From assembly GCA_032372955.1 (NCBI GenBank), contig GCA_032372955.1_4725.1: DNA of 64,000 nucleotides. The stretch is one strand, 5' to 3'. Made by a program: the position numbers and the translations under genes. The notes below the pieces were generated by a model. The model was not told the origin of the DNA and did no database searches. It was given only the letters and a program-made list of their open reading frames with translations. Source of the stretch: Escherichia coli (lineage in GTDB: Bacteria > Pseudomonadota > Gammaproteobacteria > Enterobacterales > Enterobacteriaceae). This document shows positions 3,781 through 58,264 of this stretch, piece after piece. Positions within the stretch are counted from its first letter, which is position 1, and each line of letters begins with the position of its first letter.

Positions 3781-5082
3781 ATGACACCTCGTGAATATTT
3801 CCTTTACGCGATGCGTGAAGGGCACTACCGATATCTTGAATGGATTAACGACGCATTTGCTTTTACGGAAGGTGGCGCTGAAAAATATCAGCCTAAATTA
3901 CGTCGTCAAGGTAACGTCGTTACGGTTACCATCGACGGTGAAGAACACCGATGGGAAACCGAGCCAACAAAACCCTTGTTGAATTTCTGGGATCCGTTGG
4001 AGCTTGCACCTGGCGATTTACCGTCGGTTAAGAACACAACCACCACAACCTTCGGTGAAGCGTTGTTCAATATGTACGTCCTTTATGACGCTTTCGGTAT
4101 TCAGATTGAATATCAGGCAGGACGGTTAACCAGCGGTACACTAGAATCACTGATTGCGCCGCGCGTAGCAGACGATCCCGAAGAGGGAATACCCGATCCT
4201 AACGAACGCCCTATTGGCCCACTGTACGCAAGCGAAGTGAAGAAATTCACCAACAATATCAGTGCATTAACCGCTATCAACCGTTTAATTGTCCCGTCAA
4301 TGAGTGATAAAGCGTTAACGGTCGATGATGATATTATTGCCTATCGTGATAAAGAGTTGGCGCGCTTACAAGAGGAAGGTAAGTTCACGCCTGAAGAACT
4401 GATCAAACTCGAAGCCACGCTAACCAAAATGGATAAGGAATCCTTTAAGGGCGATGAATCGGAAGGGTTCTATATTAACCCAGGCAAGAGTTTCGGTAAT
4501 ACTCGAAAGAAAACACACATCATGATGGGGGTTGAAGCCGACTTCGTTGACCCCGGTAAACGTAACGTTATCACACACAGCCTGGCTGAAGGGATGCGTG
4601 TCGACCATTGGGCGGAGTACAACAACAGTGCGCGTGCGGGTTCGTTCTCACGTGGTGCGTTAACCGCTTTAGCTGGACAGACGGCGAAAGAATCACAACG
4701 TGCAACACAGAACCTTAAAATCACGATGGACGACTGCGGTACCCACGAACATATTCTTTTCACGGTAAACCGCGACCACATCAAAGATAAGCTGCTTGTC
4801 GGCCGTTACATGATCGACGGCGCGGCGCTTAAACTTATTGATGCTGAATTACTTGCTTCTTTGGAAGGACAAACCATCAAGTTACGTGATCCTCAACGTT
4901 GTAAAGCAGGCCCATTGGAATACTGTGCTACCTGTTGCGGTAACGCGATGGCTCCAACCCCAGATGCGATCGGGGCAGAGATCACCGGCGTAAACAACGT
5001 TTTCATGAACACTATGATGAAAGCAATGCATAACGCCAGTGTATCGTTAGCGCCTTACGATCCTGAACTTTATATTAGTTAA
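3781..5082 (+). CDS. Multisubunit RNA polymerase beta-prime-like fragment (bridge helix, zinc-binding segment, start of trigger loop)
   Basis: NSARAGSFSRGALTALAGQ resembles the beta-prime bridge helix; KITMDDCGTHEHI matches the bacterial beta-prime VTEDDCGTHEGI block; a Cys cluster CKAGPLEYCATCCGN and DAIGAEITGVNNVFMNTMMKAMHN (cf. [25 protein letters not shown]) follow, then the ORF ends. Confidence 0.65.
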   Translation: MTPREYFLYAMREGHYRYLEWINDAFAFTEGGAEKYQPKLRRQGNVVTVTIDGEEHRWETEPTKPLLNFWDPLELAPGDLPSVKNTTTTTFGEALFNMYVLYDAFGIQIEYQAGRLTSGTLESLIAPRVADDPEEGIPDPNERPIGPLYASEVKKFTNNISALTAINRLIVPSMSDKALTVDDDIIAYRDKELARLQEEGKFTPEELIKLEATLTKMDKESFKGDESEGFYINPGKSFGNTRKKTHIMMGVEADFVDPGKRNVITHSLAEGMRVDHWAEYNNSARAGSFSRGALTALAGQTAKESQRATQNLKITMDDCGTHEHILFTVNRDHIKDKLLVGRYMIDGAALKLIDAELLASLEGQTIKLRDPQRCKAGPLEYCATCCGNAMAPTPDAIGAEITGVNNVFMNTMMKAMHNASVSLAPYDPELYIS

Positions 5083-5734: not shown

Positions 5735-5862
5735 CGTCTAAGGCGACGTAACGGGATTGCTGTCGTTACGACGTAGGAGGTGATCCTGATCTCCCTCACT
5801 CGCGGGGTGATGCGATAATCGTCGTGAGCTTGTCGTGAGAGATTCTCATTGCGGTCATAAAC

Positions 5863-5904
5863 TCTTCCCGCCCCATATAAGGGCAGGGAAGGGCTTTATG
5901 CCGT
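5863..5904 (+). terminator. GC-rich hairpin followed by TATGCCG motif (member of repeated hairpin-TATGC family)
   Basis: CTTCCCGCCCC..GGGCAGGGAAG inverted repeat, then TTTATGCCG at 5896..5904. Confidence 0.45.
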
Positions 5905-6350: not shown

Positions 6351-6407
6351 CTCTCCCTCTTCCCACCGTCCTCTTGAAGGATGGGGGGGGGGGAGGTTTC
6401 TATGCTG
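6351..6407 (+). terminator. GC-rich hairpin containing an 11-G homopolymer, followed by TATGCTG
   Basis: Starts immediately after the stop at 6349; G run at 6383..6393; TTTCTATGCTG at 6397..6407. Confidence 0.45.
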
Positions 6408-6428
6408 TTTTTATTTCGTGTTAACGCA

Positions 6429-6452
6429 GTTTATTTCACGACTACATTACCT
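6429..6452 (+). promoter_or_regulatory. Conserved promoter-like box GTTTATTTCACGACTACATTACCT (copy 1 of 3)
   Basis: Near-identical to 45327..45350 and related to 51812..51830; lies upstream of the small-gene block starting at 6569. Confidence 0.5.
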
Positions 6453-6473
6453 TCATGATGTCATGCATCATGA
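6453..6473. promoter_or_regulatory. Inverted repeat TCATGATG-tcatg-CATCATGA directly after the promoter-like box
   Basis: 8-bp arms are exact reverse complements with a 5-nt spacer; operator-like position. Confidence 0.35.
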
Positions 6474-6994: not shown

Positions 6995-7029
6995 TTTTCC
7001 TGCGTGTGTCTGACGTTTTGGTGGGGTTC

Positions 7030-7053
7030 GCCCCACCTTTTTTACAGCTTTTC
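7030..7053 (+). terminator. Rho-independent terminator
   Basis: GGTGGGGTTCGCCCCACC perfect hairpin followed by TTTTTT, 36 bp after the stop at 6994. Confidence 0.7.
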
Positions 7054-10866: not shown

Positions 10867-10877
10867 CAACGTAGCAT

Positions 10878-10921
10878 AGCCCCTTCCCTAGCCATCAAGG
10901 CCGGGGAAGGGCTGTATACCG
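10878..10921 (+). terminator. GC-rich hairpin (CCCTTCCC/GGGAAGGG) followed by CTGTATACCG
   Basis: Immediately after the stop at 10866; same architecture as the other hairpin-TATGC elements. Confidence 0.45.
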
Positions 10922-11504: not shown

Positions 11505-11990
11505 ATGAACATCAACTTTACTATCGAATCCGGCGATTACATGAACGATCGTGATATCATCACATTCTACCGCGAGGATTTTCGCAACGCTATTCTTAAA
11601 ACGATTGAGGATGTCTTGGATCTCGCTGAAGATCAACTTAGCAGCATCACCCCTGAAACACACATAAAAGCACGCGACGAAGCTCTGGGTGATTTGTATA
11701 TACCTAAAGCCTGTGATCGCTGCTGCTTCACTGATTTCTTCGTGTCTACGCAAGCGGTCGTTACCGACGATGGGAAGCATCACGTGATCCTTATCTTGGC
11801 TTCTCATGAGCCTATGATCAATCACGCACTTTCTTTTACACCCGGGTACATCTATGCCCTTGCAAACAAACCGATGATCAACGAAATCATTGCTGACATC
11901 CTTAGTCAGATTTGCAAAGAACATGGATTCCTGTCTATTTTCTTAACCGACGCTGACTACAAAGTAACGGCTGGCAACGAACGCGCATAA
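11505..11990 (+). CDS. Hypothetical protein (161 aa)
   Basis: AGGAGCATTCA before the ATG and a hairpin terminator right after the stop; the overlapping minus ORF 11502..11924 lacks these signals. Confidence 0.5.
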   Translation: MNINFTIESGDYMNDRDIITFYREDFRNAILKTIEDVLDLAEDQLSSITPETHIKARDEALGDLYIPKACDRCCFTDFFVSTQAVVTDDGKHHVILILASHEPMINHALSFTPGYIYALANKPMINEIIADILSQICKEHGFLSIFLTDADYKVTAGNERA

Positions 11991-11991
11991 A

Positions 11992-12052
11992 CCCCACCCC
12001 TCCCTCCGGCTTCCGCCAGGGGGAGGGGCTTCGCATGCGTTTTCTTTTTTGT
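11992..12052 (+). terminator. GC-rich hairpin followed by a T-rich tract
   Basis: CCCCTCCCTCC..GGGGGAGGGG stem, then GCATGCGTTTTCTTTTTTG. Confidence 0.55.
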
Positions 12053-12690: not shown

Positions 12691-13797
12691 TTAAGCGTCG
12701 TTAAGACCGACAGGCATCGAACTGACATCTTCAAAATAGCGGAAGATGAATGGAGAACGACCTTCTGTGATCCTATTACGACAGTACTTCGTGATAGTCA
12801 CGTTAGAAACACCCGTCTCTCGTTGTGCGTGAGCAATTGATGCAAACACATAACGTTTACCGGTTTGTTTATCGATAGCCGCGATAGGGTGACCCATATC
12901 GTATTCCTGAAGACGACGATGTTGTCCGATCTGCCAATCTGGCCACGGAGTATCATCGTCAACTTCTTTGAAATACAGATTACAGGCTGGCATGAATTTC
13001 GTTTTACGCGTCATCCAATACCAAACACGTTTACGTTCCAAGCATGGATAAGCAGCACAACACGCGGCAATAGTCGGGAACACCCTAATCTCACCGGTAT
13101 TGTAATCCTTAACCTTAACAGGATGTAAGCCTTCCGTACGAAGACCATTATCAACTGCATGCTTATTGTTCTCAGAATAGGTTGTCCATTCAATGTTGCC
13201 AGGACGGTTATCCCATTTGATGCCGTTCTTGTGATTGATGATCTTTGTCATCACATCGGCACCGTATTCCAGGAACACGTAACCCATCGCTCGATGCTGG
13301 AACATTTGAGCTGTGAAACCGTTGTCATTAACAACTCGTTGAAAGAGATAACCAGCACGTTTATTTCGCGCCGGATCCCCTTTCGACCGTGTCCATGATT
13401 TCTTCTGCCCGGTTAAAAGACTAATAACTTCACCCTGTTCATTCATCACGTAATGCGTGAAGAACGGGACATAGTAATAGCCGGGATAACCTTTATGTTC
13501 CAACTTACCGTTCTTGAAACGATAAAGCAAATTCTCACGTTTGATGTTTTCTGGGTTCCCATCGATATACAACGAATGTGCTTCGTCTAAGAGATCTTCG
13601 TATATGTTAATAGCGTGCAGTTTACGCATTACCACAAGACCTGCGTCATACAGACCAGGACCACGGTACCAGTCAAGTTTGACGTACGATATTCCGTCTT
13701 CCACGATAAGCGGTAACGGCTTCATATCGAGGTCGAAGATACCTTCTTCGGAAACAACACATTCAGTAATCTTTGGATACTCATAACTACTTGACAT
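12691..13797 (-). CDS. HNH homing endonuclease
   Basis: HKNGIKWDNRPGNIEWTTYSENNKH is a canonical HNH block; the likely start is the second ATG at 13797 (MSSSYEYPK), 7 bp after AAGGAG; the track start is at 13824. Confidence 0.8.
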   Translation of the reverse strand: MSSSYEYPKITECVVSEEGIFDLDMKPLPLIVEDGISYVKLDWYRGPGLYDAGLVVMRKLHAINIYEDLLDEAHSLYIDGNPENIKRENLLYRFKNGKLEHKGYPGYYYVPFFTHYVMNEQGEVISLLTGQKKSWTRSKGDPARNKRAGYLFQRVVNDNGFTAQMFQHRAMGYVFLEYGADVMTKIINHKNGIKWDNRPGNIEWTTYSENNKHAVDNGLRTEGLHPVKVKDYNTGEIRVFPTIAACCAAYPCLERKRVWYWMTRKTKFMPACNLYFKEVDDDTPWPDWQIGQHRRLQEYDMGHPIAAIDKQTGKRYVFASIAHAQRETGVSNVTITKYCRNRITEGRSPFIFRYFEDVSSMPVGLNDA

Positions 13798-13864
13798 ATC
13801 AACTCCTTGCTCGCTTAGTATCATACTTATCGAGAAAGGAGGTAAAACTTAACCGATTTATTTC

Positions 13865-15364
13865 TTAATCCGCAACAAATAATCTAATATAACTTCTCAG
13901 GTTCGGCATATCCCAGAAGAGATGGATGCCGTTGTCCGCCATGAGATCGCATGGCAATGTGACGATATGTCCGGTTCGTGAGATAACCCACTTATCTTCT
14001 TCCTGGGTCATGTCGTCGGCGGTGCATCCCATGACTTCCCCACGGTTAAGATACACGAAGAAAAGTTTATCGCAGATACGTTTAGGGTTAGAACTGAAAT
14101 CTTTCAAATCCGACGCCGCCAAACGAATAGGGATGGTCATCGAATAGTCTTTTGTTTTCTGGTCCAACGCCTCGATGCCTTGGTTATCCCAAAGGTTATA
14201 TACACCGTAGTCGATTTGATGGTTCGTTTGCATCTCTTCGTGCCATGCAAGCTCCGTGAACCCTTCTGTACCAGGAATCGCTTTTAATTTCGTATGGCAT
14301 TTATTTCGCTCTAACACCGCATCGAGTGAATAACGTCCTTCATCCGGTCTTCCTAAACGAACGAACTTATAACCACACATCGCATCCATAACCTGATACG
14401 TGGCCATCGTATAAAACATCGGCCATGTTTGCTCAAGGGTAAGGTTGGTTTTACGACCTGAAGCAGATACCTTGTCGGTCTTCGGTGGTACCCAGCGAGC
14501 AATACGATACTTAGGTGGTACACGAGGATCGGAGAAAACATCCTCGGGACGATACCCTTCCTCGTTCAGTGCCTGGAGCATGCGCGGAATATCGAACGCA
14601 ATATTCCAGCCAAGGAGATAATCCGGCTGCCATTCGTGAACCTTCTGCATGCATTGGATGACCGCTTGCGCCGGGCTTTCTACGATTCGCACATCGTACT
14701 GATATTTTTCAAATGCGTGAGGATCTTCTTTGGTGTTCAGACGTTCGGCCAGGTAATATCGAATCTTCTCATGGGTTTTCTCAATCGCATTCGGAATATG
14801 ACCAACGAAGTCCTTGGTATAGCAAAGGATCGCATTGTATCCCATTGTAATAGACATACAGACGATCTTACCGTGTCCATGGACAACGTCGGTTTCGATA
14901 TCGAAACAGGCAATGGAAGCGGGTAATTTATCGACGTATTCCGGCCATTTTGTATTGTATTGGGTTTTTAAATAACAGCTGGCGCTAACGTCCGTGCCGT
15001 AGAGGTAGGGACTCCGTGCAAGTTGTTGTAAACGGGTGTTATCGTCAGCACGTCTTTTATAAAGCACCGAACTGATCTTTTCAACCAGTTCACTTTGACG
15101 GACATCGTAGCGTCGCACATGCGAGAGCTTCTCGCTTTCCTTTTTATATTTGTTCTTGCGTTTACTCTCTACCGTCACCCAAAACGGACGTTTGTAATTC
15201 TCGAAGAAGCGAAGGTTCGTCGCTTGCGTATTATCATCAAAGAACATGATCTCTTTTGCGATCATGAGGTCGTTCTTACTGCCATCGTTCGCTTCGTTAT
15301 AGCTGATGTGTCGACATTGAATACCGAGCAGTTTCTTCTTAGGTTTTCGTTCTTGTTCGCTCAT
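13865..15364 (-). CDS. DEDDy 3'-5' exonuclease domain protein (family-B DNA polymerase proofreading-like); no polymerase motifs in this ORF
   Basis: Exo I FDIET, Exo II WNIAFD, Exo III YNLWD (YxxxD) in canonical order and spacing; the ORF ends about 100 aa after Exo III with no DxxSLYPS or YGDTDS blocks. Confidence 0.65.
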   Translation of the reverse strand: MSEQERKPKKKLLGIQCRHISYNEANDGSKNDLMIAKEIMFFDDNTQATNLRFFENYKRPFWVTVESKRKNKYKKESEKLSHVRRYDVRQSELVEKISSVLYKRRADDNTRLQQLARSPYLYGTDVSASCYLKTQYNTKWPEYVDKLPASIACFDIETDVVHGHGKIVCMSITMGYNAILCYTKDFVGHIPNAIEKTHEKIRYYLAERLNTKEDPHAFEKYQYDVRIVESPAQAVIQCMQKVHEWQPDYLLGWNIAFDIPRMLQALNEEGYRPEDVFSDPRVPPKYRIARWVPPKTDKVSASGRKTNLTLEQTWPMFYTMATYQVMDAMCGYKFVRLGRPDEGRYSLDAVLERNKCHTKLKAIPGTEGFTELAWHEEMQTNHQIDYGVYNLWDNQGIEALDQKTKDYSMTIPIRLAASDLKDFSSNPKRICDKLFFVYLNRGEVMGCTADDMTQEEDKWVISRTGHIVTLPCDLMADNGIHLFWDMPNLRSYIRLFVAD

Positions 15365-15557
15365 GGCTTGATAAACTCGTAATAAGTGTTAAAAAGGTGA
15401 TTTTCTATATCATCCCCACGTTCTGTTGTTTTTAACCGACCACTCTTATTGCTTGGGGTGTGATGGGTGATGTTACCGTCAAAAGGTATTTCTATGAATG
15501 CCGTTGCATAGCAGCGGACACATTGTGATTGGTGCGGCCAGCCGATCCATTAGCCCT

Positions 15558-17370: not shown

Positions 17371-20165
17371 GTATTCCAGTTATTACTCCCGACCACAACG
17401 AATTCGGCTTAGCAACCGATTACGGAGTGGTTGAAATGCGTCACGGTATGCTGATGGCGTTCCCTGACGAAGACATCCAAACCAGTGATGGTTCAAGCGT
17501 CGTCACCACCGAAGATCAGGAATTGGTTTCGTTCGACGTTAATGAATTCGTGGCTGCCGGTGAAGAAAACGTTCGTCTTCACGAACAATTAGTAACACGC
17601 GGTATTTCTCGTGCTGATGTACCGGAACTGCGTATGCGTCTTGGTGACGCATTCCCGAAACAACTGCCGGATGCTTTCTTCACGGAAATCCCATCGCGTA
17701 ACGGTGTTGAGTTAGTGCAGGAAGGATTCGTTGCCAAGGTCTCTAAACTGTTTGTCGATGGTGCGAAGAAAGTCTGGGAACTCATCAAACGTATCTGGAC
17801 ATTCGTCTTCGAATTCTTTAAGAAGACGCTGCAGAAAATCTGGAAACATTACGGCGGCACAAATAAATTTATCGCCACCACAGACGACATCATCCAAGAA
17901 GTCATCGACGCGTTAGGTGCAGATTATCCACGTTTCAAAGAAATGTTGGATAAAGAGATGACGGTTAACGACGTCTACAACGAACTTGCAGGATACGGCA
18001 GCGCGATTAACCTTAAAGAAATCGCTGACAAAAATCTGAAAGAGAAAGCGAAGTATACTGCAGAATGGCTGATGGACACGATCCCCGAAGTCGTCATTAA
18101 GTTCCAGCAATTCTCGGAAATGGCCTCATCGATGAGCCATAACGGGAACACCTTCTTAAATATTGTTCCACATATAGCCGAGATCAGAGAGTTCTACGAT
18201 TCGGTAAATCGGTTATGGGGTGTCCGACGCGGCACACTTGAAGCCATTGTTCCTCTCGTTGGTAAAAACGTCGGTGTTGTCGCCGCAGCCGATATCGTCG
18301 AAGAATGGGTACAGAAACACCAAACCGAACTTCACGATGGAAGCGTCATCCGCAACAACAAGGAAGCTTGGGTTCGTGAACTCCATGATAAAATGCATGA
18401 GCTCGCTGAACCGTTCACGGCTTTTAACGACATTAAGTTCGAAAAGACGCTGAAAGAAGCAGAGCAGATCTTCAAAGCAACGAAAGAAATGAATCCAACA
18501 GCCGATATCCGGAGCGGCGATATAGAGCTGTACGAGACGCATATGAAACTCTCGTATCAAGCGCTGTTTGCTTTTAGTCGTTTGATTTCAGCGATGTCCC
18601 GTTGGCTAATGGATATCCAACTCGCCCACATTCAGGTGGAACAGCTCGTTGCACGTTACCGTGCTTTCGAACTCAAAAACCATTTCATCATCCTCGAACG
18701 TGACGATGATTGGAAAATCATTTATCAGGCACTGAAAGCAAGAGCAGTGAAGCCCCTGAATGATTACAAAGAGAAATTCGATAAAGCAGCGGCTAAGCAA
18801 AAAGAAGATGCGAAGACACTCGATCCTGCTAAGAAGGAGATGCTTGCCCAGATGGTTGTCGATTTCTTTAAGTTCGAAAGTTTTGAAGACGATGTATCCG
18901 GCTGCGCTTATCTGACCGAAACAGACCGTCAGGCACGCAAAGATCTTGTTGAGATTGACGAAGCCATCTATCGGACTTCGCATCGTGGTGAGGTCAGCAA
19001 ACCAGATGAGCAGATCTATCTGGAACTGCGTGAACGGTATATGCCTGACCAGGCGTTAGAGCCGACCATGGAATCGTTCGGTATCATGAAGATGGCTGTT
19101 ATCGGTGTCATCATCACGACAGCCTATACAGCGATTCGTCGTCTGTTGCTCTGGATTATTGAACTCTTGAAGAAACGTGCTGATAGCGTAGCAGCCACCG
19201 AAAAAGCGGCCAACGACGCCATCAAGCAGGCGAAACGTAACGCGAACGTTTATGTTCCTGATGAGAATGTTCGTAAAGAGGTTGATAAAACCGAGGATAC
19301 CGACGCAATGCGTAACGTTGTTGGTGCGCCCAGCAAGTCGGTCTCTGACGTTCCATTAACTACCGAACAGAAACTTTCGGCTGTTTCTGCGATTGTTGAT
19401 GGTATCCGTAAGGAGATGGTGACCTCACCGGTGTTCGATCGTCTTCAGCAAGCGTGTACGTCTTTAACGTTAGGTTATTTCCAGGAAGGTAAGCTGGATA
19501 CTATTCTTCGTGAGATGCGCCGTCTGCGTCCCGATCGTATCGTGTATCTGAACGACCAGTGTAAAGAACTCGAAGGGGCATTAGAAGACCAGAAACGTGC
19601 TAAAGAAGGCGAGATTGCTCCGCGTCTGGCTAACCTGGCCGGTACCATGAAACAGGGTATGGAAGCGTACCGAATGCTGTATGACAATTCGCTGACTTTC
19701 CGTTTCAACGAGTTAACAACGTCTGCACACTTACCGCCGAAGGACTTTGCCGAATTCGGTGAGAAAGTACTGCAAAGCGGTACTCCTGTGTATCCGGACA
19801 CCAACGTACTTCAGCAGTTAGCAACCGCACTTGACGGCAACAGCTATCTGTTATTTACCCGTTCCGGTGACGAATTCAGCAAACTTGCTGACAGTAAGTT
19901 TAAAGAAATCGAAACACAGTTCCGTCGTTTAAATGACGTTGCTCGCCAGGTGAAAGCCATTCCGCAAGAAAACGCAACCGAGCTTCGCTCAACCGTTGAT
20001 TATATCAACGCACAGATTCGTGAAATCGCTGCGTGGTATAGCTTCGAAGAAGCCTTGCGTTCACGGGTGGACGGGTTAGTCACTGCGTATCGTGATTATG
20101 TTTTCGCGGAAGCAAAACTGATCAACGAGAAACTACAGAAAGCCGGTTTCGGTAAATTAGCGTAA
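17367..20165 (+). CDS. Large virion-associated protein (932 aa) with internal hydrophobic segment
   Basis: VQEGFVAKVSKLFVDGAKKVWELIKRIWTFVFEFFKK resembles the amphipathic motif of the 29973..36554 family; hydrophobic stretch IMKMAVIGVIITTAYTAI. Confidence 0.5.
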   Translation: MSIPVITPDHNEFGLATDYGVVEMRHGMLMAFPDEDIQTSDGSSVVTTEDQELVSFDVNEFVAAGEENVRLHEQLVTRGISRADVPELRMRLGDAFPKQLPDAFFTEIPSRNGVELVQEGFVAKVSKLFVDGAKKVWELIKRIWTFVFEFFKKTLQKIWKHYGGTNKFIATTDDIIQEVIDALGADYPRFKEMLDKEMTVNDVYNELAGYGSAINLKEIADKNLKEKAKYTAEWLMDTIPEVVIKFQQFSEMASSMSHNGNTFLNIVPHIAEIREFYDSVNRLWGVRRGTLEAIVPLVGKNVGVVAAADIVEEWVQKHQTELHDGSVIRNNKEAWVRELHDKMHELAEPFTAFNDIKFEKTLKEAEQIFKATKEMNPTADIRSGDIELYETHMKLSYQALFAFSRLISAMSRWLMDIQLAHIQVEQLVARYRAFELKNHFIILERDDDWKIIYQALKARAVKPLNDYKEKFDKAAAKQKEDAKTLDPAKKEMLAQMVVDFFKFESFEDDVSGCAYLTETDRQARKDLVEIDEAIYRTSHRGEVSKPDEQIYLELRERYMPDQALEPTMESFGIMKMAVIGVIITTAYTAIRRLLLWIIELLKKRADSVAATEKAANDAIKQAKRNANVYVPDENVRKEVDKTEDTDAMRNVVGAPSKSVSDVPLTTEQKLSAVSAIVDGIRKEMVTSPVFDRLQQACTSLTLGYFQEGKLDTILREMRRLRPDRIVYLNDQCKELEGALEDQKRAKEGEIAPRLANLAGTMKQGMEAYRMLYDNSLTFRFNELTTSAHLPPKDFAEFGEKVLQSGTPVYPDTNVLQQLATALDGNSYLLFTRSGDEFSKLADSKFKEIETQFRRLNDVARQVKAIPQENATELRSTVDYINAQIREIAAWYSFEEALRSRVDGLVTAYRDYVFAEAKLINEKLQKAGFGKLA

Positions 20166-20246
20166 TCATGCGTACCGTATAACCGTACGCGTTGTTCAAC
20201 CCTAGGTGGAGGCCAATAACCTCCACCTAGGTCAACGGAGTGTTTT

Positions 20247-23033
20247 ATGAACAAATACCTTAAAGCAGGGTTATCTTCCGCTGAAAATGGTTTATTGGTT
20301 CTTGAGTCATTGACAGAAAATATCAACGCTGTATCACATCCCACGATCCCTAGCAGTGTGGGTCTTGATGAGCTTCTGGCGTTGAAAGAAACGTTACATC
20401 GTGACAAACAGGTATCACGTCAACAACTAGCAATGCTGTCATATTCCCTTCCTGACGCAATGGAAGGTAAGCCGCTGGCATTATGGACCGAGTTACCTTC
20501 AACGACCGGTTTCAATGAAGCCTGCCGTGTTGTCGATAAAGCCATCGCGATTATCGGGGAACAGTTGAGAAACGCATCCGCCACGCAAGTAAAAGATCTT
20601 CTGGAGCAGGAGCTTACGCGTCTTGAAGAAAATGCGTCGTACGTTGACGATTTTACTGCATTGACTCAGGCGCATTCTGAACGTTTTTCTGCCATCCATG
20701 AAACATTGGGTGGTTTGATCGATCATCCAGACGTAAAAGAAGACCTCGCTATCGCTGTACAGAAATACGAAGGTAAGCTCGCACAGCTCTGGTCACCGAT
20801 TGTTGATCTGGTTGCGGTAACGCAAGCTCTGTCAGCGCTTTATGCCGTCGATCGCAAAATCCTTGAGCAAGCACTTGCATTACAGCCGTCTGGCAACGAT
20901 GGTGCGGATGAAGAGTACAACGTAGTTACTGCTGTTCCGTCGACCGATATCAATGTCCTTATGCCGTACTTCGACCAAGCGGGAAATCTCATCCCTACTG
21001 AATCGGTAGCGGCACCGAAAGAATGGGACGGTAAAACACTTCTCACCGTTTTAGGTACCGCGGTTTTCGCATCACGAATCATGCGTGACGTCGTGAACGA
21101 TTACCCAGAAACAGCGGCGTTGGTTAAACAACTGCTAGAACGCGTTGAATCTGCTCAAGCCGATGAAAATCTTGACAACATCGGTTATTTAGCGGTTATC
21201 GCACGTCTGCAAAATGCCCGTATCGTTTACCAGCGCATGTTAGTGCAATGTGTGCGTACCGTACTGACTTACGCTGAAGCTGTTGCTGAGCTTGTTATGT
21301 CGGTATCTGAGACCGCTACTGCTGTCCGTAGTGAAGAGCTTTGGGATAAAACTCAAGAAGAAATCGAAGCGGCTGACGGATACACACGTACCGATCTCGT
21401 GCAGGAAGGGTATGGCATCTATACCGCAGAAAGCGCGTGGGAAACGTTACGGCGGACGATGGAATACACCGTCAACATTCTAAAACGTTTGGTCGATTGG
21501 TTGGTTAAGAGCTGGCGTAATGGAAGTGCGAAAGCGGCGATCCAGCAGGCGGAGGCTAATAACAGTCAGCTTACGCGAGCTAAAGACGCTCTGCTTACCG
21601 AAGGCACGAAGAAACGCTTAGCATCGTTACATACCGTCGGTATTCAGACCATTGCGAAATATGCTGAAGCAGGAACGATCTGGTCGGGAGCGTTCAAAGG
21701 GGTTACCGACAATCTGGGTAACGTTGCGGCATTAATCAGCTCGGAAGTGAAAGAGCTATCGAACGGGCGTGAACTCGATCAGGATAAACTCGCTAAGATT
21801 CGTGAAGGTCTTGCTCTTGCATTCGAGAAAGGTAACTTCAATAAAGTTCTTCTTGGACACGATGGTATCACTATCGATAATCTCGCAAGTGAAATCCATG
21901 ACTACCGTGAAGAATTGAAGGATCAGTTCAAGGAATCCACGAACGAATCTATCGATGTGGATAAACTGATTCGATACAACGACGGTTGCCGTAAATTCCT
22001 GCAAGGACCAGTTACCGATGCACGTAACAAGGTCAGTGGACATGAGTTGGATAATCTGCTTACCATGTTGAACAGCATGATTCGTCAACAAGCCTCTTCG
22101 CCTGAGAATAAAGGTTTAGGGGCGTTGAAGAACGAAATCGTGAACGCACGTGACCTTGCTAAAGCCGCTGTGGATGTTCTCGGTATCGCACAATGGCTGG
22201 AAGTCCGGGCTAAGCGTTACATCAATGCTTTGAGTACAGTTGTCGATAAAGCAAACAGCGAAGCAGCAGCGGTTAGCGGATCGTTGAAACAGGAATCGTT
22301 CGATCTTAACGAAACTGTGCTCTCGTCCACCAATTACGATGTTTGTAGCGTCGCAGCCACGAGTCTCGCGGCAAACAGATTCCGCAACTCGCGTGACGAA
22401 CTTCGTCGTCATTATAACCAAGCCTTGGAGGCTGCGCTTCAAGTCTATAACCGGGCTGTTTATAACCGTGCTGTAATCGGACAACATCTGTTGGGTGTTA
22501 TGCCGCGGTTTACGGGTGTGTTCAGTAACTATCCGTGGACATTAGGCCTTGACCTTCAGGTGTCCAATCCTGTCGCGTTAAATGCGTTCTGTGAAAAGCT
22601 TTCGCGGTCTATCGAGCTCTATGGTGCAGGTACTGCCGACAGCATCACACAGGCGGTTGCTTTGTTAGATTCCACAGAACTCTGTTATGCGGTGGATCCG
22701 AACTATGAAGGCGAATCTGGTAACTCATCAGCTTTAGCAACGCATATGTTCGAATATCGACGTCTGGCAAAAGAAGCGTTGGAACCTCATAGCGACTTTA
22801 CCACTGAAGAACAACGGCGGGGATGGTACGCGACGTTCACGGACAGTTCACCATCATGGGAACCGGATAATACTCTCCAGGTGGTAACGGAAGATGTTGA
22901 TCCTTCGCTGATATGGGCATTCGCGTCTTTGTTCTGTGCTGCGCTGAATGCGTATATCGCATTGAAATACGGTACCGATCTCAAGGTGTACGGTTGGTTC
23001 AGCGAACAGCAGAACAGCAATAACGTAAGATAA
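20247..23033 (+). CDS. Large virion-associated protein (928 aa)
   Basis: Long ORF with ribosome-binding site; contains a W/K-rich amphipathic segment (VNILKRLVDWLVKSWRNG) like the neighbouring family. Confidence 0.5.
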   Translation: MNKYLKAGLSSAENGLLVLESLTENINAVSHPTIPSSVGLDELLALKETLHRDKQVSRQQLAMLSYSLPDAMEGKPLALWTELPSTTGFNEACRVVDKAIAIIGEQLRNASATQVKDLLEQELTRLEENASYVDDFTALTQAHSERFSAIHETLGGLIDHPDVKEDLAIAVQKYEGKLAQLWSPIVDLVAVTQALSALYAVDRKILEQALALQPSGNDGADEEYNVVTAVPSTDINVLMPYFDQAGNLIPTESVAAPKEWDGKTLLTVLGTAVFASRIMRDVVNDYPETAALVKQLLERVESAQADENLDNIGYLAVIARLQNARIVYQRMLVQCVRTVLTYAEAVAELVMSVSETATAVRSEELWDKTQEEIEAADGYTRTDLVQEGYGIYTAESAWETLRRTMEYTVNILKRLVDWLVKSWRNGSAKAAIQQAEANNSQLTRAKDALLTEGTKKRLASLHTVGIQTIAKYAEAGTIWSGAFKGVTDNLGNVAALISSEVKELSNGRELDQDKLAKIREGLALAFEKGNFNKVLLGHDGITIDNLASEIHDYREELKDQFKESTNESIDVDKLIRYNDGCRKFLQGPVTDARNKVSGHELDNLLTMLNSMIRQQASSPENKGLGALKNEIVNARDLAKAAVDVLGIAQWLEVRAKRYINALSTVVDKANSEAAAVSGSLKQESFDLNETVLSSTNYDVCSVAATSLAANRFRNSRDELRRHYNQALEAALQVYNRAVYNRAVIGQHLLGVMPRFTGVFSNYPWTLGLDLQVSNPVALNAFCEKLSRSIELYGAGTADSITQAVALLDSTELCYAVDPNYEGESGNSSALATHMFEYRRLAKEALEPHSDFTTEEQRRGWYATFTDSSPSWEPDNTLQVVTEDVDPSLIWAFASLFCAALNAYIALKYGTDLKVYGWFSEQQNSNNVR

Positions 23034-23043
23034 CAGCATATTC

Positions 23044-23082
23044 CCTCCTCCTTCCCTGACGGGTTGGAGGAGGGTTATGCTC
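23044..23082. terminator. Bidirectional terminator hairpin between convergent genes, with TTATGCTC motif
   Basis: CCCTCCTCC-ttccctgacgggtt-GGAGGAGGG, then TTATGCTCATGCTATTTTGTTTT; lies between 20247..23033 (+) and 23096..26089 (-). Confidence 0.6.
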
Positions 23083-23095
23083 ATGCTATTTTGTT

Positions 23096-29972: not shown

Positions 29973-31295
29973 ATGCCTTCTATTTTTGATCGTCTTGTCG
30001 CAAATCCATCTAACGCACAGCTGGTTCAACTGGCTGCTGAGATCGACCCGGATGCAGCGGCAACCGTTGAAGCAGAACCGGCAGCTGATGCTGCAGCAGC
30101 GGATGAAAACGCTGTAGCTGAACTGACCGAACGTGCTGAAATCGCTGAAGATACCGCAGCTGAAACCGAACTGGCTATCGAAGTTCGTGGTGATATCGAG
30201 CAGGTTGACGCTGTTGTTATCGAAATTGCAAAAGACGACGAAACCGCAGAAGCCATGGATGATGCCATGGATGAACTGACGGAAACCGTTGTCGCAACCG
30301 AAAGCTACCTGAAAGACGGTGGTATGTCTGCACAAACCGCTCAGGAACACATGCGTAATCTGAAACGTCTGTGTGGTACTATCGGTTTCAAAATGCCGGA
30401 AACCATGCCGTCCTTCGAAAGCTTCGGTGGTTCCGCTTCCCGTTACGATGCAACCAACATGATCTTCCTGGAAGAACAAAAATGGTGGCAGAAACTGTGG
30501 GCAACCATCAAGAACTTCCTGAAAACTTCCTGGGAAACCTTCGTGAAGTTCATGGATCGCATCTTCGACGGCGCGACCAAACTGAAAGCACGTGCTGCTA
30601 AACTGAAAGAAATGATCGCCAAGCGTAAAGGCGTTGCTAAAAATACCAAAGTTAAACTGGGTAGCGGCGTTTCTGGCTACATCGGTGGCGACGATCTGGT
30701 TACCGGCGCGACCAAAATCGCTGACACCTTCGAGAAAGCAATGAAGGCTGCTGACGATCGTGCTGATAAATTCGTTGGTACCGTTGTCGCTAAATCTCAC
30801 ACCGAGTACGCTGATAAACTGAACGCTCCGGCGATTGCTGACGTTGCTGGCCCGGCAGGTTGGGGCTTCAAAGCCAACGATGGTAAAGTAACCTGGGAAC
30901 GCTCTGGCGAAGCAAAAGAAGTTGAAGCTACCGTCCTGTCCCTGAACCAGCTGGCTGCTGCGGTTAGCGGTGTTGAAGTACTGGCTGACAAACTGCTGGC
31001 GCTGAAAGGCAACATCGGTAAGAAATCCCAGGGCTTCAAAGACGCTGTTAAATTCGGTGACGATATGGAAGCCGATCTGTCTAAGAAAGGCGAAGTTTCC
31101 GCTCAGGAAAAACAGCGTGTTCAAGCTGTACTGTCTGCACTGAAAGACGCACGTTCCTGCTACGTGAACCCGCAGACTGGTCTGATGAAATACGGTGTTC
31201 AGGCAGGTAACGCTGTCCTGGATGGCGTTGCTAAAATGCTGAAAGAGTACGGCGGCCAGGCGGCTGAGAAACCGGCCGACGCAGCACAGCAGTAA
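29973..31295 (+). CDS. Abundant virion protein, paralog family member 1 (acidic Ala/Glu-rich N-terminal region)
   Basis: Strongly host-optimised codons (CTG, CGT, GGT, AAC, GAA) produce a full-length mirror ORF on the minus strand; N-terminal 100 aa rich in A-x-E motifs; W/K-rich amphipathic segment WWQKLWATIKNFLKTSWETFVKFM. Confidence 0.6.
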   Translation: MPSIFDRLVANPSNAQLVQLAAEIDPDAAATVEAEPAADAAAADENAVAELTERAEIAEDTAAETELAIEVRGDIEQVDAVVIEIAKDDETAEAMDDAMDELTETVVATESYLKDGGMSAQTAQEHMRNLKRLCGTIGFKMPETMPSFESFGGSASRYDATNMIFLEEQKWWQKLWATIKNFLKTSWETFVKFMDRIFDGATKLKARAAKLKEMIAKRKGVAKNTKVKLGSGVSGYIGGDDLVTGATKIADTFEKAMKAADDRADKFVGTVVAKSHTEYADKLNAPAIADVAGPAGWGFKANDGKVTWERSGEAKEVEATVLSLNQLAAAVSGVEVLADKLLALKGNIGKKSQGFKDAVKFGDDMEADLSKKGEVSAQEKQRVQAVLSALKDARSCYVNPQTGLMKYGVQAGNAVLDGVAKMLKEYGGQAAEKPADAAQQ

Positions 31296-31316
31296 TCAGT
31301 TAATAAACTGACATAT

Positions 31317-31360
31317 CCCCCTCTCCCAACCCGTAAGGGAAGGGAGAGGGTTCTATGCCG
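31317..31360 (+). terminator. GC-rich hairpin followed by TTCTATGCCG
   Basis: CCCTCTCCC-aacccgtaagggaa-GGGAGAGGG, then TTCTATGCCG; lies between paralog genes. Confidence 0.5.
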
Positions 31361-31398
31361 CTCAGGTTTATCTTTTGAATCATTACTGGAGACAACAC

Positions 31399-34014: not shown

Positions 34015-34023
34015 CCACCATGT

Positions 34024-34065
34024 CCCTTCCTCCAACCCAACAGGGAAGGAGGAAGGTTTATGGCG
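34024..34065 (+). terminator. GC-rich hairpin followed by TTTATGGCG
   Basis: CCTTCCTCC-aacccaacagggaa-GGAGGAAGG, then TTTATGGCG. Confidence 0.5.
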
Positions 34066-34162
34066 TTGGTATCCGGTTATCTTTTGACTTCTGAATCAAC
34101 GGTTCAGAAGGTAAATGGCGGACATGATCACCCGCCAAGATTTTCCTACGTAGGAGTTCCAA

Positions 34163-39956: not shown

Positions 39957-39971
39957 TCCGTGCACATAAAC

Positions 39972-40001
39972 AGCCCGCCCTTCGGGGTGGGCTTTATGCT
40001 G
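39972..40001 (+). terminator. GC-rich hairpin with TTCG loop followed by TTATGCTG
   Basis: AGCCCGCCC-ttcg-GGGTGGGCT, then TTTATGCTG, 16 bp after the stop at 39956. Confidence 0.55.
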
Positions 40002-40044
40002 TCGACCATCATGTGATATCTTATCTTTCAAACAGGAATCTGCG

Positions 40045-45265: not shown

Positions 45266-45306
45266 CCCTCTCCCTTCCCTTACGGGTTGGGAGAGGGCTT
45301 ATGCTG
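45266..45306 (+). terminator. GC-rich hairpin followed by CTTATGCTG
   Basis: CCCTCTCCC-ttcccttacgggtt-GGGAGAGGG, then CTTATGCTG, 5 bp after the stop at 45261. Confidence 0.55.
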
Positions 45307-45326
45307 TCTTATTTCGCATTACTCCA

Positions 45327-45350
45327 GTTTATTTCGCGACTACATTACCT
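45327..45350 (+). promoter_or_regulatory. Conserved promoter-like box GTTTATTTCGCGACTACATTACCT (copy 2 of 3)
   Basis: 23 of 24 nt identical to 6429..6452; followed by AGGTGATAAG as in copy 3; ~200 bp upstream of 45559. Confidence 0.5.
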
Positions 45351-45558
45351 AGGTGATAAGAGCGGTTACTGTTGTCGCTGTAAATTTCTCTTAATAATCG
45401 AGGATACAGTCATGGCCTTATTAATACGCGACCCGTCAGCATACGAAAACACGCGTTATAACCATAACCAGTTCGGCAATAATTTCTAACAAAGAACGAT
45501 CAATCTATGCATTGATTCTTCTATCCGCAATCCACCTAACATAGAAAGGTAAAATACG

Positions 45559-46932: not shown

Positions 46933-46947
46933 TCAAAGCGGTCATAA

Positions 46948-47002
46948 CCCCTCCTCCTTCCCTTACGGGTTGGAGGAGGGAACCGCACAATCTTTTTTTT
47001 TT
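46948..47002. terminator. Bidirectional terminator between convergent genes
   Basis: CCCTCCTCC-ttcccttacgggtt-GGAGGAGGG hairpin, then a T10 run at 46993..47002. Confidence 0.65.
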
Positions 47003-48656: not shown

Positions 48657-49277
48657 ATGAAGGAACTCCGATATCTCGTCGTTCCGAATTGGGTAGAACA
48701 CGCGATTATTCGAAATGCGCGTGATGACTTACAGGTGTTATTAGATCCTAAAAGTCTTTTCGGCATACTATCGCCCAATGATGTAGGTTTTTATTTCGCA
48801 GCCCAGAACGTGCCTTTCTTCATCACGAAAGAACACGAACAAGCGAACCCTGCGGTTCATCTTAACAACCTGCTTGGTGGTATGTTTGCGTATCACTATG
48901 ACGAAACAGGTTTGCCGCCAGAGAAGAATGTTGATGTGCTGTGTGAGTACATCAATCGTTATGACAATGGTTATTACCATTTACTGACGAGCTATCCGCG
49001 TGATATTGAACGTCGTTTGGCGGATCCAACTTACAGCCCAGACAAACGTCCGTTGAGTGTTCGGGTGCGTTATGTTAATGAGGATGTGATCGCGATTGTT
49101 GTCGATTGTCTTCCTTTATTGGCAGAAGAGTTATTGAGCGATCGTATTGCTGATAACTACAGCGCCGTTATTGAACACCTGCGAATTAATATGAGTCTTG
49201 CGGAAGTTGCGCAATTGCCGCTGTTCCGTTCATATTGCACCAATCGTTCCATCCATTATCGCCTGCGTCGTTTGTGA
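48657..49277 (+). CDS. Hypothetical protein (206 aa)
   Basis: ORF with AAGAGG before the ATG; divergent from the helicase gene. Confidence 0.5.
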   Translation: MKELRYLVVPNWVEHAIIRNARDDLQVLLDPKSLFGILSPNDVGFYFAAQNVPFFITKEHEQANPAVHLNNLLGGMFAYHYDETGLPPEKNVDVLCEYINRYDNGYYHLLTSYPRDIERRLADPTYSPDKRPLSVRVRYVNEDVIAIVVDCLPLLAEELLSDRIADNYSAVIEHLRINMSLAEVAQLPLFRSYCTNRSIHYRLRRL

Positions 49278-49426
49278 CGTAGGGAAAAGTTATGCGGCAT
49301 TTTTAGTGTTGTATCACGACCTCAATAACGGTAAGTGTTTACTGATACTATAGTGGCGCATGCACGCGTGTACGCTATGGTCTATCGACCGACTTATATA
49401 AGTTAATTCTGTAAAGGATACTTTCA

Positions 49427-51649: not shown

Positions 51650-51747
51650 ACTACCGTAGCTGCTTCGTTGGACGATATTCTTGACGACAACGTTGCGGAT
51701 GGTTTCATTGCACCGGACATTCATCCGGCACCGTGATACATAAGTCA

Positions 51748-51789
51748 GCCTCCCTCAGCCCGTAAGGGTTGGGGGAGGTTTCTATGCCG
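51748..51789 (+). terminator. GC-rich hairpin followed by TTTCTATGCCG
   Basis: CCTCCC-tcagcccgtaagggttg-GGGAGG, then TTTCTATGCCG; ~100 bp after the stop at 51649. Confidence 0.5.
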
Positions 51790-51811
51790 TTTACGTTGTG
51801 AATAGAAAAAA

Positions 51812-51830
51812 TTTGACGCTTACATTACCT
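51812..51830 (+). promoter_or_regulatory. Conserved promoter-like box TTTGACGCTTACATTACCT (copy 3 of 3)
   Basis: Shares the ACATTACCT core and the downstream AGGTGACAGA with copies 1 and 2; ~155 bp upstream of the start at 51986. Confidence 0.45.
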
Positions 51831-51985
51831 AGGTGACAGACGCCTGCGATGAATAAGGCATAGACAACACGTAAGGTCGTTCTCGCGCTAGGAACGATGC
51901 TGAAACCGTCGGCTGTCGGCTCGATAAGAACAAGAAAAGGGAAATGCGTTATGCGTGATAGTTTTCAATCAGATGGAGGTTGACG

Positions 51986-53422: not shown

Positions 53423-53461
53423 CTTTAATCTGCTTAAGCAACTTTCTGAAAGGAGTGTGTG

Positions 53462-55258
53462 ATGGATCCTAGATTCTGCAAAGCTGTCGCTGAGCTTGCA
53501 CCGAAGATGAACGAGAAGATAGCACGCAACATCGTCGTCGATAAGATGCAAGATGTTGAGTCCTATGTTGATCGTCTTTGGCGGAACAGCAAAGATAGTT
53601 TACCTAAGGATCTGGTGTATCATGGCCTGCGTCGCTGCATGGCCCGCGAACAGTTCCACTACTTAAGCGGAGGAAAGAAAACCAAAGGGAAGGATAGCGG
53701 TAAGCTGACCTTCGACCTTGCGCCTTCCGATGTGTTTATGGTGATGCTGGAATTCCGCTGGTACGGCGCAATGGAATCAGGTGACCGTCGTGAACCAGGA
53801 AAGGACTACTGCATTATCCGACACCCTCTCCTATTGCCCGCGGTAGGTCAGGGTGGTAAAATGCGTCTACGTGGTGCGAACTTCATTCTCAGTGCGGTGC
53901 TCGCTGACCCTGTAATCAGTTACACGAAAGACATGGCGTTCATCATGCTTCCGCGTGACAAAATCACGGTTAAACGTACACCGTATCAGTTCCTGAGCAA
54001 TGATACACCGACCGGTATCGATTATCGTCATTACCTATCATTACCCTGGTCGCAAATCTATCATCTTACCAAACAAAGTAAAGTGAACGGTGACAACATC
54101 AACCACACCAGCGTAACCACACTGGGTCACTATCTCTTTGCGAAGTATGGGGTGGGTGAGTGTTTCCGACGTTTTGCAGGCGTCGAAGCCGTAACCGGAC
54201 GGAACCTTGCTGAACGTGATTTTCCGCGCGACCAATGGGTAATCTATCGCACCATGGGGGTTATTCCTAAAGGCTTTAGTATCAGCAAAAGCGGTAAAAG
54301 CCGTAGCGCTAGCGCTGTACGTTACAAGCATCCTGATATTCAAATTGCCGTAAGACGTGGAGGCACGGAACGTATTGTTCTTGGCCTTGTCGGCGCATTC
54401 TTGTATCTCATCGACCGTTATTACGATCGTTTTCCGGAAGACTATCCGGTTGAAGAGTTCGCGAATGCGCCAGACCATTGGCGTACATTACTCGGTTTGA
54501 TTATCTTTAATAACAACAATGCAGATGCGCGTTTGTTGCGTGATGTAAACCACCACATCGACAGTCTCGATCTTTACGTTGACGAGATTCAGCAGAAGAA
54601 GTTCAAACAGGAAAATATTCCTTGCGATGACTTCTACGAATTTATGGCGTATCTGATTGACAATGTTACTATCGAAATGAGTCGTGTTGATACCACGACG
54701 ATGTTCGGTAAGGAATTGATGGTGTTGGAATATGTCATGGAGGATGTGCGTAAGAGCATCTTTAAACTGGGGTTCCATCTTAAAACCACAGAACGTGGTA
54801 AACGACAGAACAACCGTAAAGAGATGACCAATCGCGATGTACAGAAGGCGTTGCGAAATCAAGTTGCGACGGAAGCGATTCTCAATATCCAGAGCAATCG
54901 TGATAAGCGTGAGAAAGTGGCAACATCGATTCAGTCACCTGGTGATTGCATGCTGTTCAAAGTGAGCACGCATGTTGTTCTCCAGAGCCAAAATGCAGGC
55001 GGTGCTGCATTGGCTGACGAGAGTCGTTTGGTTAGTGGTTCCATCCCGTTCTGTGCAAGCTATCTGAATCTTCCACACTCCGAACCAACCGGACGTCAGA
55101 AGTTCAGTATGTACGCACCTATCGACGAACGTGGTCGGTTAATCATTACCCCACAAATTGCAAATGACGTTGCAGCAACCAATGCAGGCTTGAAGAAAGA
55201 CGTCGGTCGATTCGATGAAGAAATTGTAGAAATTAACGATCACGACATAATCGATTGA
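53462..55258 (+). CDS. Hypothetical protein (~598 aa)
   Basis: ORF with AAAGGAGTGTGTG before the ATG. Confidence 0.55.
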   Translation: MDPRFCKAVAELAPKMNEKIARNIVVDKMQDVESYVDRLWRNSKDSLPKDLVYHGLRRCMAREQFHYLSGGKKTKGKDSGKLTFDLAPSDVFMVMLEFRWYGAMESGDRREPGKDYCIIRHPLLLPAVGQGGKMRLRGANFILSAVLADPVISYTKDMAFIMLPRDKITVKRTPYQFLSNDTPTGIDYRHYLSLPWSQIYHLTKQSKVNGDNINHTSVTTLGHYLFAKYGVGECFRRFAGVEAVTGRNLAERDFPRDQWVIYRTMGVIPKGFSISKSGKSRSASAVRYKHPDIQIAVRRGGTERIVLGLVGAFLYLIDRYYDRFPEDYPVEEFANAPDHWRTLLGLIIFNNNNADARLLRDVNHHIDSLDLYVDEIQQKKFKQENIPCDDFYEFMAYLIDNVTIEMSRVDTTTMFGKELMVLEYVMEDVRKSIFKLGFHLKTTERGKRQNNRKEMTNRDVQKALRNQVATEAILNIQSNRDKREKVATSIQSPGDCMLFKVSTHVVLQSQNAGGAALADESRLVSGSIPFCASYLNLPHSEPTGRQKFSMYAPIDERGRLIITPQIANDVAATNAGLKKDVGRFDEEIVEINDHDIID

Positions 55259-58185: not shown

Positions 58186-58204
58186 TAAATTAAATAGCGC
58201 ATAG

Positions 58205-58264
58205 CCCTTCTCCCCTTCCCTCATCGGGTTGGGGAGAAGGTTAACTATGTGTTATTTTTTTTTT
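58205..58264. terminator. Bidirectional terminator between convergent genes
   Basis: CCTTCTCCCC-ttccctcatcgggtt-GGGGAGAAGG hairpin, TTAACTATGTG, then a T10 run at 58255..58264. Confidence 0.65.

Follow-up and report, generated by a model that had tools for sequence, protein, structure and literature searches.

A canonical bacterial intrinsic terminator consists of a GC-rich hairpin with a U-rich stretch within a few nucleotides of it, and bidirectional forms carry both an A-tract and a U-tract. In phage phiKZ, the reported mapping of 61 transcript 3′ ends gave the terminator motif 5'-BCCYCCCCHWWDGGGRRGGBYTTATKYYGT-3', which combines a stem-loop with a downstream TTAT (Putzeys et al. 2024, Microlife, PMC10914365). 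For 201phi2-1, a resembling 'motif A' and an additional motif by which the hairpin becomes longer ('motif A+B') are described, and several of eight terminators tested in vivo by terminator trap are reported as functional; the end resolution of ONT-cappable-seq is given there as only ~2 nt (PMC11512511). The phiKZ late promoter is TATG, with G at +1 and all four bases needed in vitro (Yakunina et al. 2015, PMC4666361), and a preliminary description of the locus studied here was right that these promoters centre on TATG. GP123, the beta-like subunit of the phiKZ non-virion RNA polymerase, has a pocket that binds TATG of the non-template strand (PMC12809450), and reviews still regard late-promoter specificity as unexplained.

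The DNA analyzed here (the window) is a stretch of 64,000 nt. The 6-kb stretch around the flagged site at 31317 shares 96% identity with Escherichia phage vB_EcoM_Goslar, and the whole window aligns to Goslar 93,137 to 31,087 in reverse orientation with 88–97% identity. On these alignments the window is identified as DNA of a Goslar-like E. coli jumbo phage of the nucleus-forming phiKZ type. Its genes are mainly structural and lie on the + strand; they include the major capsid gene (49427-51649, +), the product of which has at most 34% identity to that of any compared phiKZ-like relative. The Goslar annotation contains homologs of multisubunit RNA polymerase beta and beta' subunits.

Hairpins were called by sliding RNAfold across the window with a cut-off of dG ≤ −24 kcal/mol per 50 nt; a simple stem finder was dropped as too permissive. 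Fourteen hairpins passed the cut-off and 14/14 are intergenic. TATG stands just to the right of 10/14 and CATA just to the left of 10/14 (random positions, 7.6% and 4.8%, respectively), and the two words flank 7/14 hairpins together (random positions, 0.6%). The swapped controls, with CATA on the right and TATG on the left, gave 0/14. TATGCYG occurs 28 times in the window against an expected 12.4 ± 3.5, a count reached in 0/100 shuffles. The preliminary description had proposed comparing TATGC behind hairpins with the expectation from base composition, and by both measures the word is in excess.

That description had listed 11 intergenic sites with a GC-rich hairpin followed by TATGC. A GC-rich hairpin in an intergenic gap was found at 11/11 of them. 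TATG follows the stem within 1–5 nt on the + strand at nine (5897, 6401, 23076, 31354, 34059, 39995, 45300, 51783 and 58246), leaving 10878 and 46948 without it. Six carry the full TATGC[CT]G (5897, 6401, 31354, 39995, 45300 and 51783) and the remaining three + strand sites read TATGCTC, TATGGCG and TATGTGT. The statement that TATG stands in place of a plain U-tract held for the fixed TATG end but not for what precedes it, as the spacer is T-rich (CTT, TTTC and TT), so that each tail amounts to a brief run rich in U with UAUG at its end. An uninterrupted U-tract of ~6–8 nt is absent from the element tails, which read CTTTATG, TTCTATG, TTATG and similar. The earlier list also missed a mirror word, CATA, 1–5 nt upstream of the stem. 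Because CATA mirrors TATG across the stem, the element is a long imperfect palindrome. Two further members are at 11984-12039 (− strand) and, weakly, at 49260-49294. The 5′ arm of the stems is rich in C/T and the 3′ arm in G/A, for example CCCTCCTCC/GGAGGAGGG, and several elements fold with their flanks into helices of 20–25 bp with interruptions. The stems at 6351 and 51748 depend on G·U pairs formed only in sense RNA; sense versus antisense stability is informative for only three elements, the others being near-perfect palindromes. In-gene tail matches at 20836 and 20955 were set aside as ordinary coding sequence with no hairpin.

The flagged element (31311..31361, +) has CATA at 31312-31315, a two-tier hairpin at 31319-31350 composed of CCCTCTCCC-AA-CCC-GTAA-GGG-AA-GGGAGAGGG and the tail TTC-TATG(31354-31357)-CCG. 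Similar terminator elements on the + strand start at the left of the window with one at a tandem junction (5856..5904), with CATA at 5856-5859, a core at 5863-5893 and the tail CTT-TATG(5897-5900)-CCGT; its dG is −24 to −32, it is identical in Goslar, and its GGCTTTATGCCGT is an exact fit to the 3′ half of the motif reported for phiKZ. The next (6351..6408, +) has a long G·U-rich hairpin at 6351-6395 and the tail TTTC-TATG(6401-6404)-CTGT. It is far more stable as the sense strand (−31.0 versus −22.4 antisense), as expected of an RNA-level structure. Within the 3′ arm of this hairpin lies a G11 homopolymer (6385-6395, +) where Goslar has GGGGGAGGAGGG; it is possibly a tract prone to slippage, or else an artefact of the assembly. 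At 7020-7043 (+) there is one canonical host-style terminator, GGTGGGG-TTCG-CCCCACC (7020-7037) followed by T6. A degenerate member (10871..10921, +) has CATA at 10875-10878, a hairpin and the tail CTG-TATA-CCG without TATG; its Goslar ortholog reads CTA-TATG-TTG. Of the two members added here, the one at 11984..12039 lies on the − strand, with a hairpin at 11997-12028, TTTATGCGCG on the − strand and CATA at 11986-11989 on the + strand; by position it would terminate the polymerase/endonuclease/intron block of the − strand.

Farther right, 34018..34066 (+) combines a hairpin at 34025-34056 with the tail TT-TATG(34059-34062)-GCGT, and its upstream word is CATG, which is CATA in two relatives. 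The element at 39964..40002 (+) has a simple UUCG loop, with CATA at 39965-39968, a hairpin at 39972-39992 and the tail TT-TATG(39995-39998)-CTGT; among the listed sites it is the sole one annotated as 'putative transcriptional terminator' in Goslar. At 45266..45307 (+), a hairpin at 45266-45297 is followed by CT-TATG(45300-45303)-CTGT. An ORF of 62 codons (45301-45489, +), equivalent to Goslar_00047, starts at the ATG inside this TATG, and if transcripts end or start at the 45300 TATG, the Goslar_00047 gene call is doubtful. The weak member (49260..49298, +) has a hairpin of 8–9 bp at 49260-49284 that overlaps the upstream stop codon, followed by GAAAAGT-TATG(49291-49294)-CGG, with a dG of −14.2 sense versus −9.5 antisense; the major capsid gene is 133 nt further on. 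Behind that gene stands another element (51738..51790, +; sense −31.3 versus antisense −20.7), with CATA at 51739-51742, a hairpin at 51747-51780 and the tail TC-TATG(51783-51786)-CCGT.

Three members lie at convergent junctions. Those at 23036..23083 (CATA 23037-23040, hairpin 23043-23074 and TATG 23076-23079; TATGCT on both strands; dG −33) and 58198..58252 (CATA 58200-58203, hairpin 58205-58242 and TATG 58246-58249; − strand, CTATGCGCT; dG −39 with flanks) are predicted to be bidirectional. The third (46941..46985, −) has a hairpin at 46949-46980 and CATA at 46943-46946 on the + strand; TATG is present only on the − strand (TTATGACCG), where it would serve the convergent − strand gene, and the + strand exit has AACCGC...T10 in place of TATG. 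T10 runs at ~46992-47001 and ~58254-58263 follow the hairpins of two convergent junctions by 10–15 nt, and T-runs are likewise found behind TATG in phiKZ, 201phi2-1, Xanthomonas phage Xoo-sp14 and a Vibrio phage.

The window tails CTTTATGCCGT, CTTTATGCTGT and GCTTATGCTGT are instances of BYTTATKYYGT, the 3′ part of the phiKZ motif. This string is matched exactly at three window sites (5892, 39990 and 45295), and six more have the same tail with the spacer off by 1–3 nt. As in phiKZ, pyrimidines dominate the 5′ arm of the stem and purines the 3′ arm, the tail runs pyrimidine–TTAT–G/T–pyrimidine–pyrimidine–GT, and the elements are located where genes end, in a phage that encodes multisubunit RNA polymerases of its own. 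The Goslar-like hairpins differ in having a 9-bp outer stem, a 2 × 2 UU/AA internal loop, a 3-bp inner stem and a tetraloop. Most are two-tiered and longer than the 7-bp stem of phiKZ and thus represent a variant of its motif; moreover, the fourth base of TATG is nearly always G, followed by C, where phiKZ has K. With the canonical terminator they share the hairpin and U-rich stretch, a predicted release point 4–9 nt past the stem and symmetric flanks associated with two-way activity. Unlike it, their U-tract is only 2–5 nt long and ends in a fixed UAUG, and the stem sequences are conserved. The upstream extension in the 201phi2-1 'motif A+B' may correspond to the CATA arm.

In our own scan of phiKZ (1–150 kb), the design CATA-N1-4-hairpin-N1-3-TATG was found, with one copy just behind the capsid gene gp120 at ~120.6 kb in the same arrangement as the window element at 51738..51790. 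201phi2-1, Xoo-sp14 and Ralstonia phage RP12 have CATA-hairpin-TATG elements as well. The Vibrio relative mostly lacks the design, which was not found in the sampled capsid regions of the SPN3US-like phage SPFM17 and Erwinia phage Machina, where hairpins with plain T-runs occur instead. Given that the capsid protein of the window phage is at most 34% identical to those of the compared phages, the tail is conserved over deep divergence. In IMG/VR, the two-tier hairpin type was limited to Goslar and two Goslar-like contigs. In Bacillus phage AgentSmith (L015), (T)ATTGG rather than TATG stands behind 4/12 of the strongest hairpins (4525-4595, 17377-17447, 22239-22309 and 30243-30313), which suggests a different lineage-specific terminator tail.

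On this comparison, the window elements are assigned to the Goslar-lineage branch of the terminator family known from phiKZ and 201phi2-1. What is new is the membership of the Goslar lineage; the terminator family itself has already been described in those two phages. The palindromic CATA partner, its association with convergent junctions and the fact that the tail repeats the word of late start sites are not discussed in the available text of the phiKZ and 201phi2-1 terminator literature. The remark in the preliminary description that the stems look like terminators is supported by the match to the published phiKZ motif and by the phiKZ 3′ ends considered below.

The same description had proposed that TATGC may be a minimal promoter, and several facts lend this a basis. 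If the TATG behind the hairpin were a late promoter of the non-virion RNA polymerase, the element would be a terminator-promoter cassette in which transcription restarts at the G. The four-base word is shared with phiKZ late promoters, where G is +1 and all bases are required, and the window encodes a homolog of the TATG-binding GP123 with a largely conserved pocket. At every tandem site, 27–195 nt separate the element from the next gene, so a leader would fit, and the phiKZ late start site P049 adjoins the terminator tail TTATGCTATG.

The placement of the word points the other way. With gene maps taken from a greedy ORF caller rather than curated annotation, TATG in the whole Goslar genome stands on 44/58 transcription-receiving sides versus 10/34 other sides (Fisher p = 2e-5). 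Exit-side TATG is present at 21/28 tandem and 23/30 convergent junctions. As convergent junctions, which offer no gene to transcribe and could yield only antisense RNA, carry TATG just as often, TATG is poorly placed to be a promoter of the downstream gene. In the window, the elements at 23036-23083 and 58198-58252 lie between convergent genes and not upstream of a same-strand gene. The antisense copy, CATA, is found at 9/28 Goslar tandem junctions versus 23/30 sides at convergent junctions. At phiKZ tandem junctions the mirror CATA (18/40) is about as common as the sense-side TATG (20/40). As the phiKZ element is symmetric whatever the junction type, the directional argument rests on Goslar, and the phiKZ palindrome may have a further reason besides directionality. 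Finally, 23/26 intergenic TATGCYG in Goslar stand directly behind a hairpin, which marks the 7-mer as part of a terminator rather than as a promoter in its own right.

Mapped transcript ends of phiKZ, taken from supplement tables of a bioRxiv preprint (start sites P001–P066 and terminators T001–T033), agree with this. In 10/10 hairpin + TATG terminators compared from these tables, the mapped 3′ end lies −1 to +2 nt from the G of TATG, a position to which exonuclease trimming back to the hairpin could also lead. Among 67 loosely defined hairpin-associated TATG sides in phiKZ 1–118 kb, two have a tabulated start site within 3 nt, and in both the coincidence is with a second TATG further downstream. 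The number of true tail TATGs that are start sites in these tables is 0–1 from the 67 loose sides, or ~50 true tails by rough count. Conversely, 18/27 tabulated late start sites have TATG at the start, and most of them lack a stable upstream structure; the model late promoter p119L also has no hairpin. The window elements have in common with the phiKZ late promoter the four-base word and a homologous polymerase with a conserved binding pocket. They differ in the hairpin 1–5 nt upstream and the conserved (C)YGT downstream, as phiKZ late promoters mostly have no upstream GC hairpin and nothing conserved downstream of TATG. The searched literature treating both Goslar and promoters contained no map of Goslar transcript starts or ends.

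A separate box provides a further argument against a promoter at the tail. Three terminators in the window are followed by an early-promoter-like block on the + strand: 6420..6460, reading TTTATTTCACGAC-TACATTACC with the box at 6443-6451, 42 nt past the terminator TATG; 45318..45358, with TACATTACC at 45341-45349, 41 nt past TATG; and 51800..51837, with TACATTACC at 51821-51829, 38 nt past TATG. The conserved block around the box is TTTATTTCRCGAC-TACATTACC-TAGGTGA, and approximately a dozen sites similar to TACATTACC are present in Goslar. The phiKZ early-promoter box TATATTAC stands ~8 nt ahead of early start sites in the tabulated phiKZ data (for example, P001) and also trails terminator tails, by 28–33 nt. 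One copy of TATATTAC, at ~120657, occupies the same place in phiKZ as the 51800..51837 block in the window, which lies, as in phiKZ, upstream of gp122-like and gp123-like (RNA polymerase beta-like) genes. Judged from sequence and position, TACATTACC looks like the Goslar-lineage counterpart of the phiKZ early (virion polymerase) promoter box TATATTAC. With this box 38–42 nt past TATG at 6351, 45266 and 51748, a separate and recognizable candidate promoter therefore exists where one is needed right behind a terminator. A promoter function of the post-hairpin TATG is accordingly improbable, and the earlier suggestion of a minimal promoter is not supported by these comparisons.

Another candidate, a mini-ORF start with the GGAGG purine arm as a Shine–Dalgarno sequence and the ATG of TATG as start codon, was also rejected: the ORFs are mostly of 5–10 codons and unrelated (by eye), and the motif is found on either strand, convergent junctions included. 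The purines of the Xoo-sp14 stem are in its 5′ arm, which leaves the ATG there without a preceding Shine–Dalgarno sequence. A gap between divergent genes (15485-15515, +), flanked by a polymerase-like gene on the − strand and a virion gene on the + strand, contains TATG and CATA facing each other (TTCTATGAATGCCGTTGCATAGC) without a GC hairpin; this pair could be divergent TATG-type promoters.

The elements are probably factor-independent terminators of the phiKZ kind, composed of a hairpin, a T-rich spacer of 1–5 nt and TATG(C)YG(T). The GC-rich hairpin, usually two-tiered, would form in the RNA, in keeping with the two stems that need sense-strand G·U pairs and with compensatory double changes relative to Goslar in the stem at 20201, and the short U-rich tract with UAUG would replace the long bacterial U-tract. 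The consensus pause of bacterial RNA polymerase has at its core a pyrimidine (−1) next to G (+1). The corresponding U(−1)/G(+1) step of TATG may act as the point of pause and release for the phage polymerase, and the transcript would end at or 1–2 nt past this step, 4–8 nt behind the stem, a stop that is observed in phiKZ and predicted for the window phage. Copies with the word on both strands, that is, with CATA upstream, would stop transcription both ways, especially between convergent genes.

The elements might be RNA processing sites, the second option named in the preliminary description, or stability sites, with an extended stem cut by an RNase III-like enzyme, for which phage T7 is the model, or an exonuclease block with trimmed ends. 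The processing stem would be the GC hairpin plus a CAUA/UAUG lower stem, ~20–25 bp with internal loops, and the observed fold of elements and flanks into interrupted helices of this length fits it. Exonuclease trimming also gives 3′ ends at a fixed short distance past a stable hairpin, and the palindromic flanks past TATG would be missing from terminated RNA and present in read-through RNA. However, the Goslar CATA partner is scarce at tandem junctions, where separation of cistrons matters most, and common at convergent ones, as counted above. The spacers between CATA or TATG and the stem are also often non-complementary (for example, TCC versus TTC at 31317). For these two reasons, stem lengthening was discarded as the sole reason for CATA. 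Several 201phi2-1 terminators are, moreover, reported as confirmed in vivo in terminator-trap reporters (PMC11512511). RNA processing is thus an unsupported reading, and we consider a processing or stability site unlikely, slightly more so than a promoter at the tail.

The GP123 homolog of the window phage is encoded at 53459..55258 (+), in the same order behind the capsid gene as in phiKZ, and aligns full-length to phiKZ gp123 with 24% identity; its Goslar ortholog, Goslar_00039, is annotated as 'hypothetical protein'. The pocket residues F151, H331, S144, S334 and Q466 are identical in the window homolog, and H185 → Y and Y406 → F are conservative changes. In the lineages with T-tract terminators (SPN3US-like phages and Machina), the pocket has L185, E334, W406 and C144, a correlation in which relatedness is a confounder and for which the underlying alignments have 20–30% identity. 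The tail is common to phages with 20–35% identical proteins and missing from sister lineages, which suggests that the phage polymerase, not the host enzyme, reads it. As the tail is also the late-promoter word and the mapped phiKZ 3′ ends fall on TATG, it is conceivable, as a tentative proposal, that one pocket of the non-virion polymerase reads TATG at both promoter and terminator. The pocket would fix the start at the G of a promoter TATG; a non-template TATG emerging just past the GC hairpin would trap the elongating enzyme at U(−1)/G(+1), where pausing would lead to release and make a long U-tract dispensable. The adjoining GC-rich stem might keep the tail TATGs from promoter use. No link between terminator tail and promoter word was found in the searchable literature. 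If true, the dual use would suggest how transcripts are ended by a polymerase that acts in the phage nucleus and so is separated from the termination factors of the host.

The uniformity of the stems within a genome exceeds what simple termination requires, and it brings up a DNA-level explanation in which the elements are palindromic repeats of a REP-like, selfish or recombinogenic nature, a tetranucleotide is recognized beside the hairpin and terminator activity is incidental. Stems are near-uniform in each genome and differ between genomes (CCCTCCTCC in Goslar-like phages and GCGAGAGG in RP12), the exact hairpin type is restricted to Goslar-like contigs of IMG/VR, and two copies have a 55-nt downstream block in common. 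At 31328-31341, 34034-34047 and 46958-46971, close relatives carry the central 14 nt of the hairpin, made up of internal loop, 3-bp stem and tetraloop, in opposite orientations, which is a DNA-level event. In one example, the window has AACCCGTAAGGGAA and Goslar TTCCCTCACGGGTT, with the outer stem unchanged, and the inner 14 nt of the flagged element are inverted relative to Goslar and U988. From the alignment, this change is read as a small inversion between inverted repeats, and both loop orientations appear to be tolerated. Against repeats of this kind, copies stand at orthologous gene ends despite 20–35% protein identity, as behind the capsid gene in phiKZ, Xoo-sp14 and the window phage; the orientation of the element tracks transcription in Goslar, and the stability of some stems is confined to the sense RNA. 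The Goslar gene annotations include no cognate hairpin-recognizing transposase. We regard this explanation as highly improbable, the least credible of those considered. Among four Goslar-like genomes there is little divergence at the elements except for turnover of the antisense CATA at 31317, 34024 and 10878.

Reading the elements as terminators gives, for practical purposes, better annotation and a map of the operons of Goslar-like phages, by now a model of how nucleus-forming phages grow in E. coli; in the Goslar stretch that matches window ~10,000-56,000, only one such site has a terminator feature. A strong hairpin without a TATG tail lies at 20201-20231 (+); its stem has two compensatory double substitutions relative to Goslar (GGTGGAGG/CCTCCACC against GGGGAAGG/CCTTCCCC), and a second hairpin just upstream of it is absent in Goslar. 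On the − strand, 12379-12704 matches the full Rfam group I intron model (70 bits, E = 9e-16). The Goslar record has two group I introns elsewhere and none annotated at the orthologous place. Immediately upstream of the match are a NUMOD1/HNH endonuclease ORF (12691-13824) and a DNA-polymerase-exonuclease-like gene (13865-15364).
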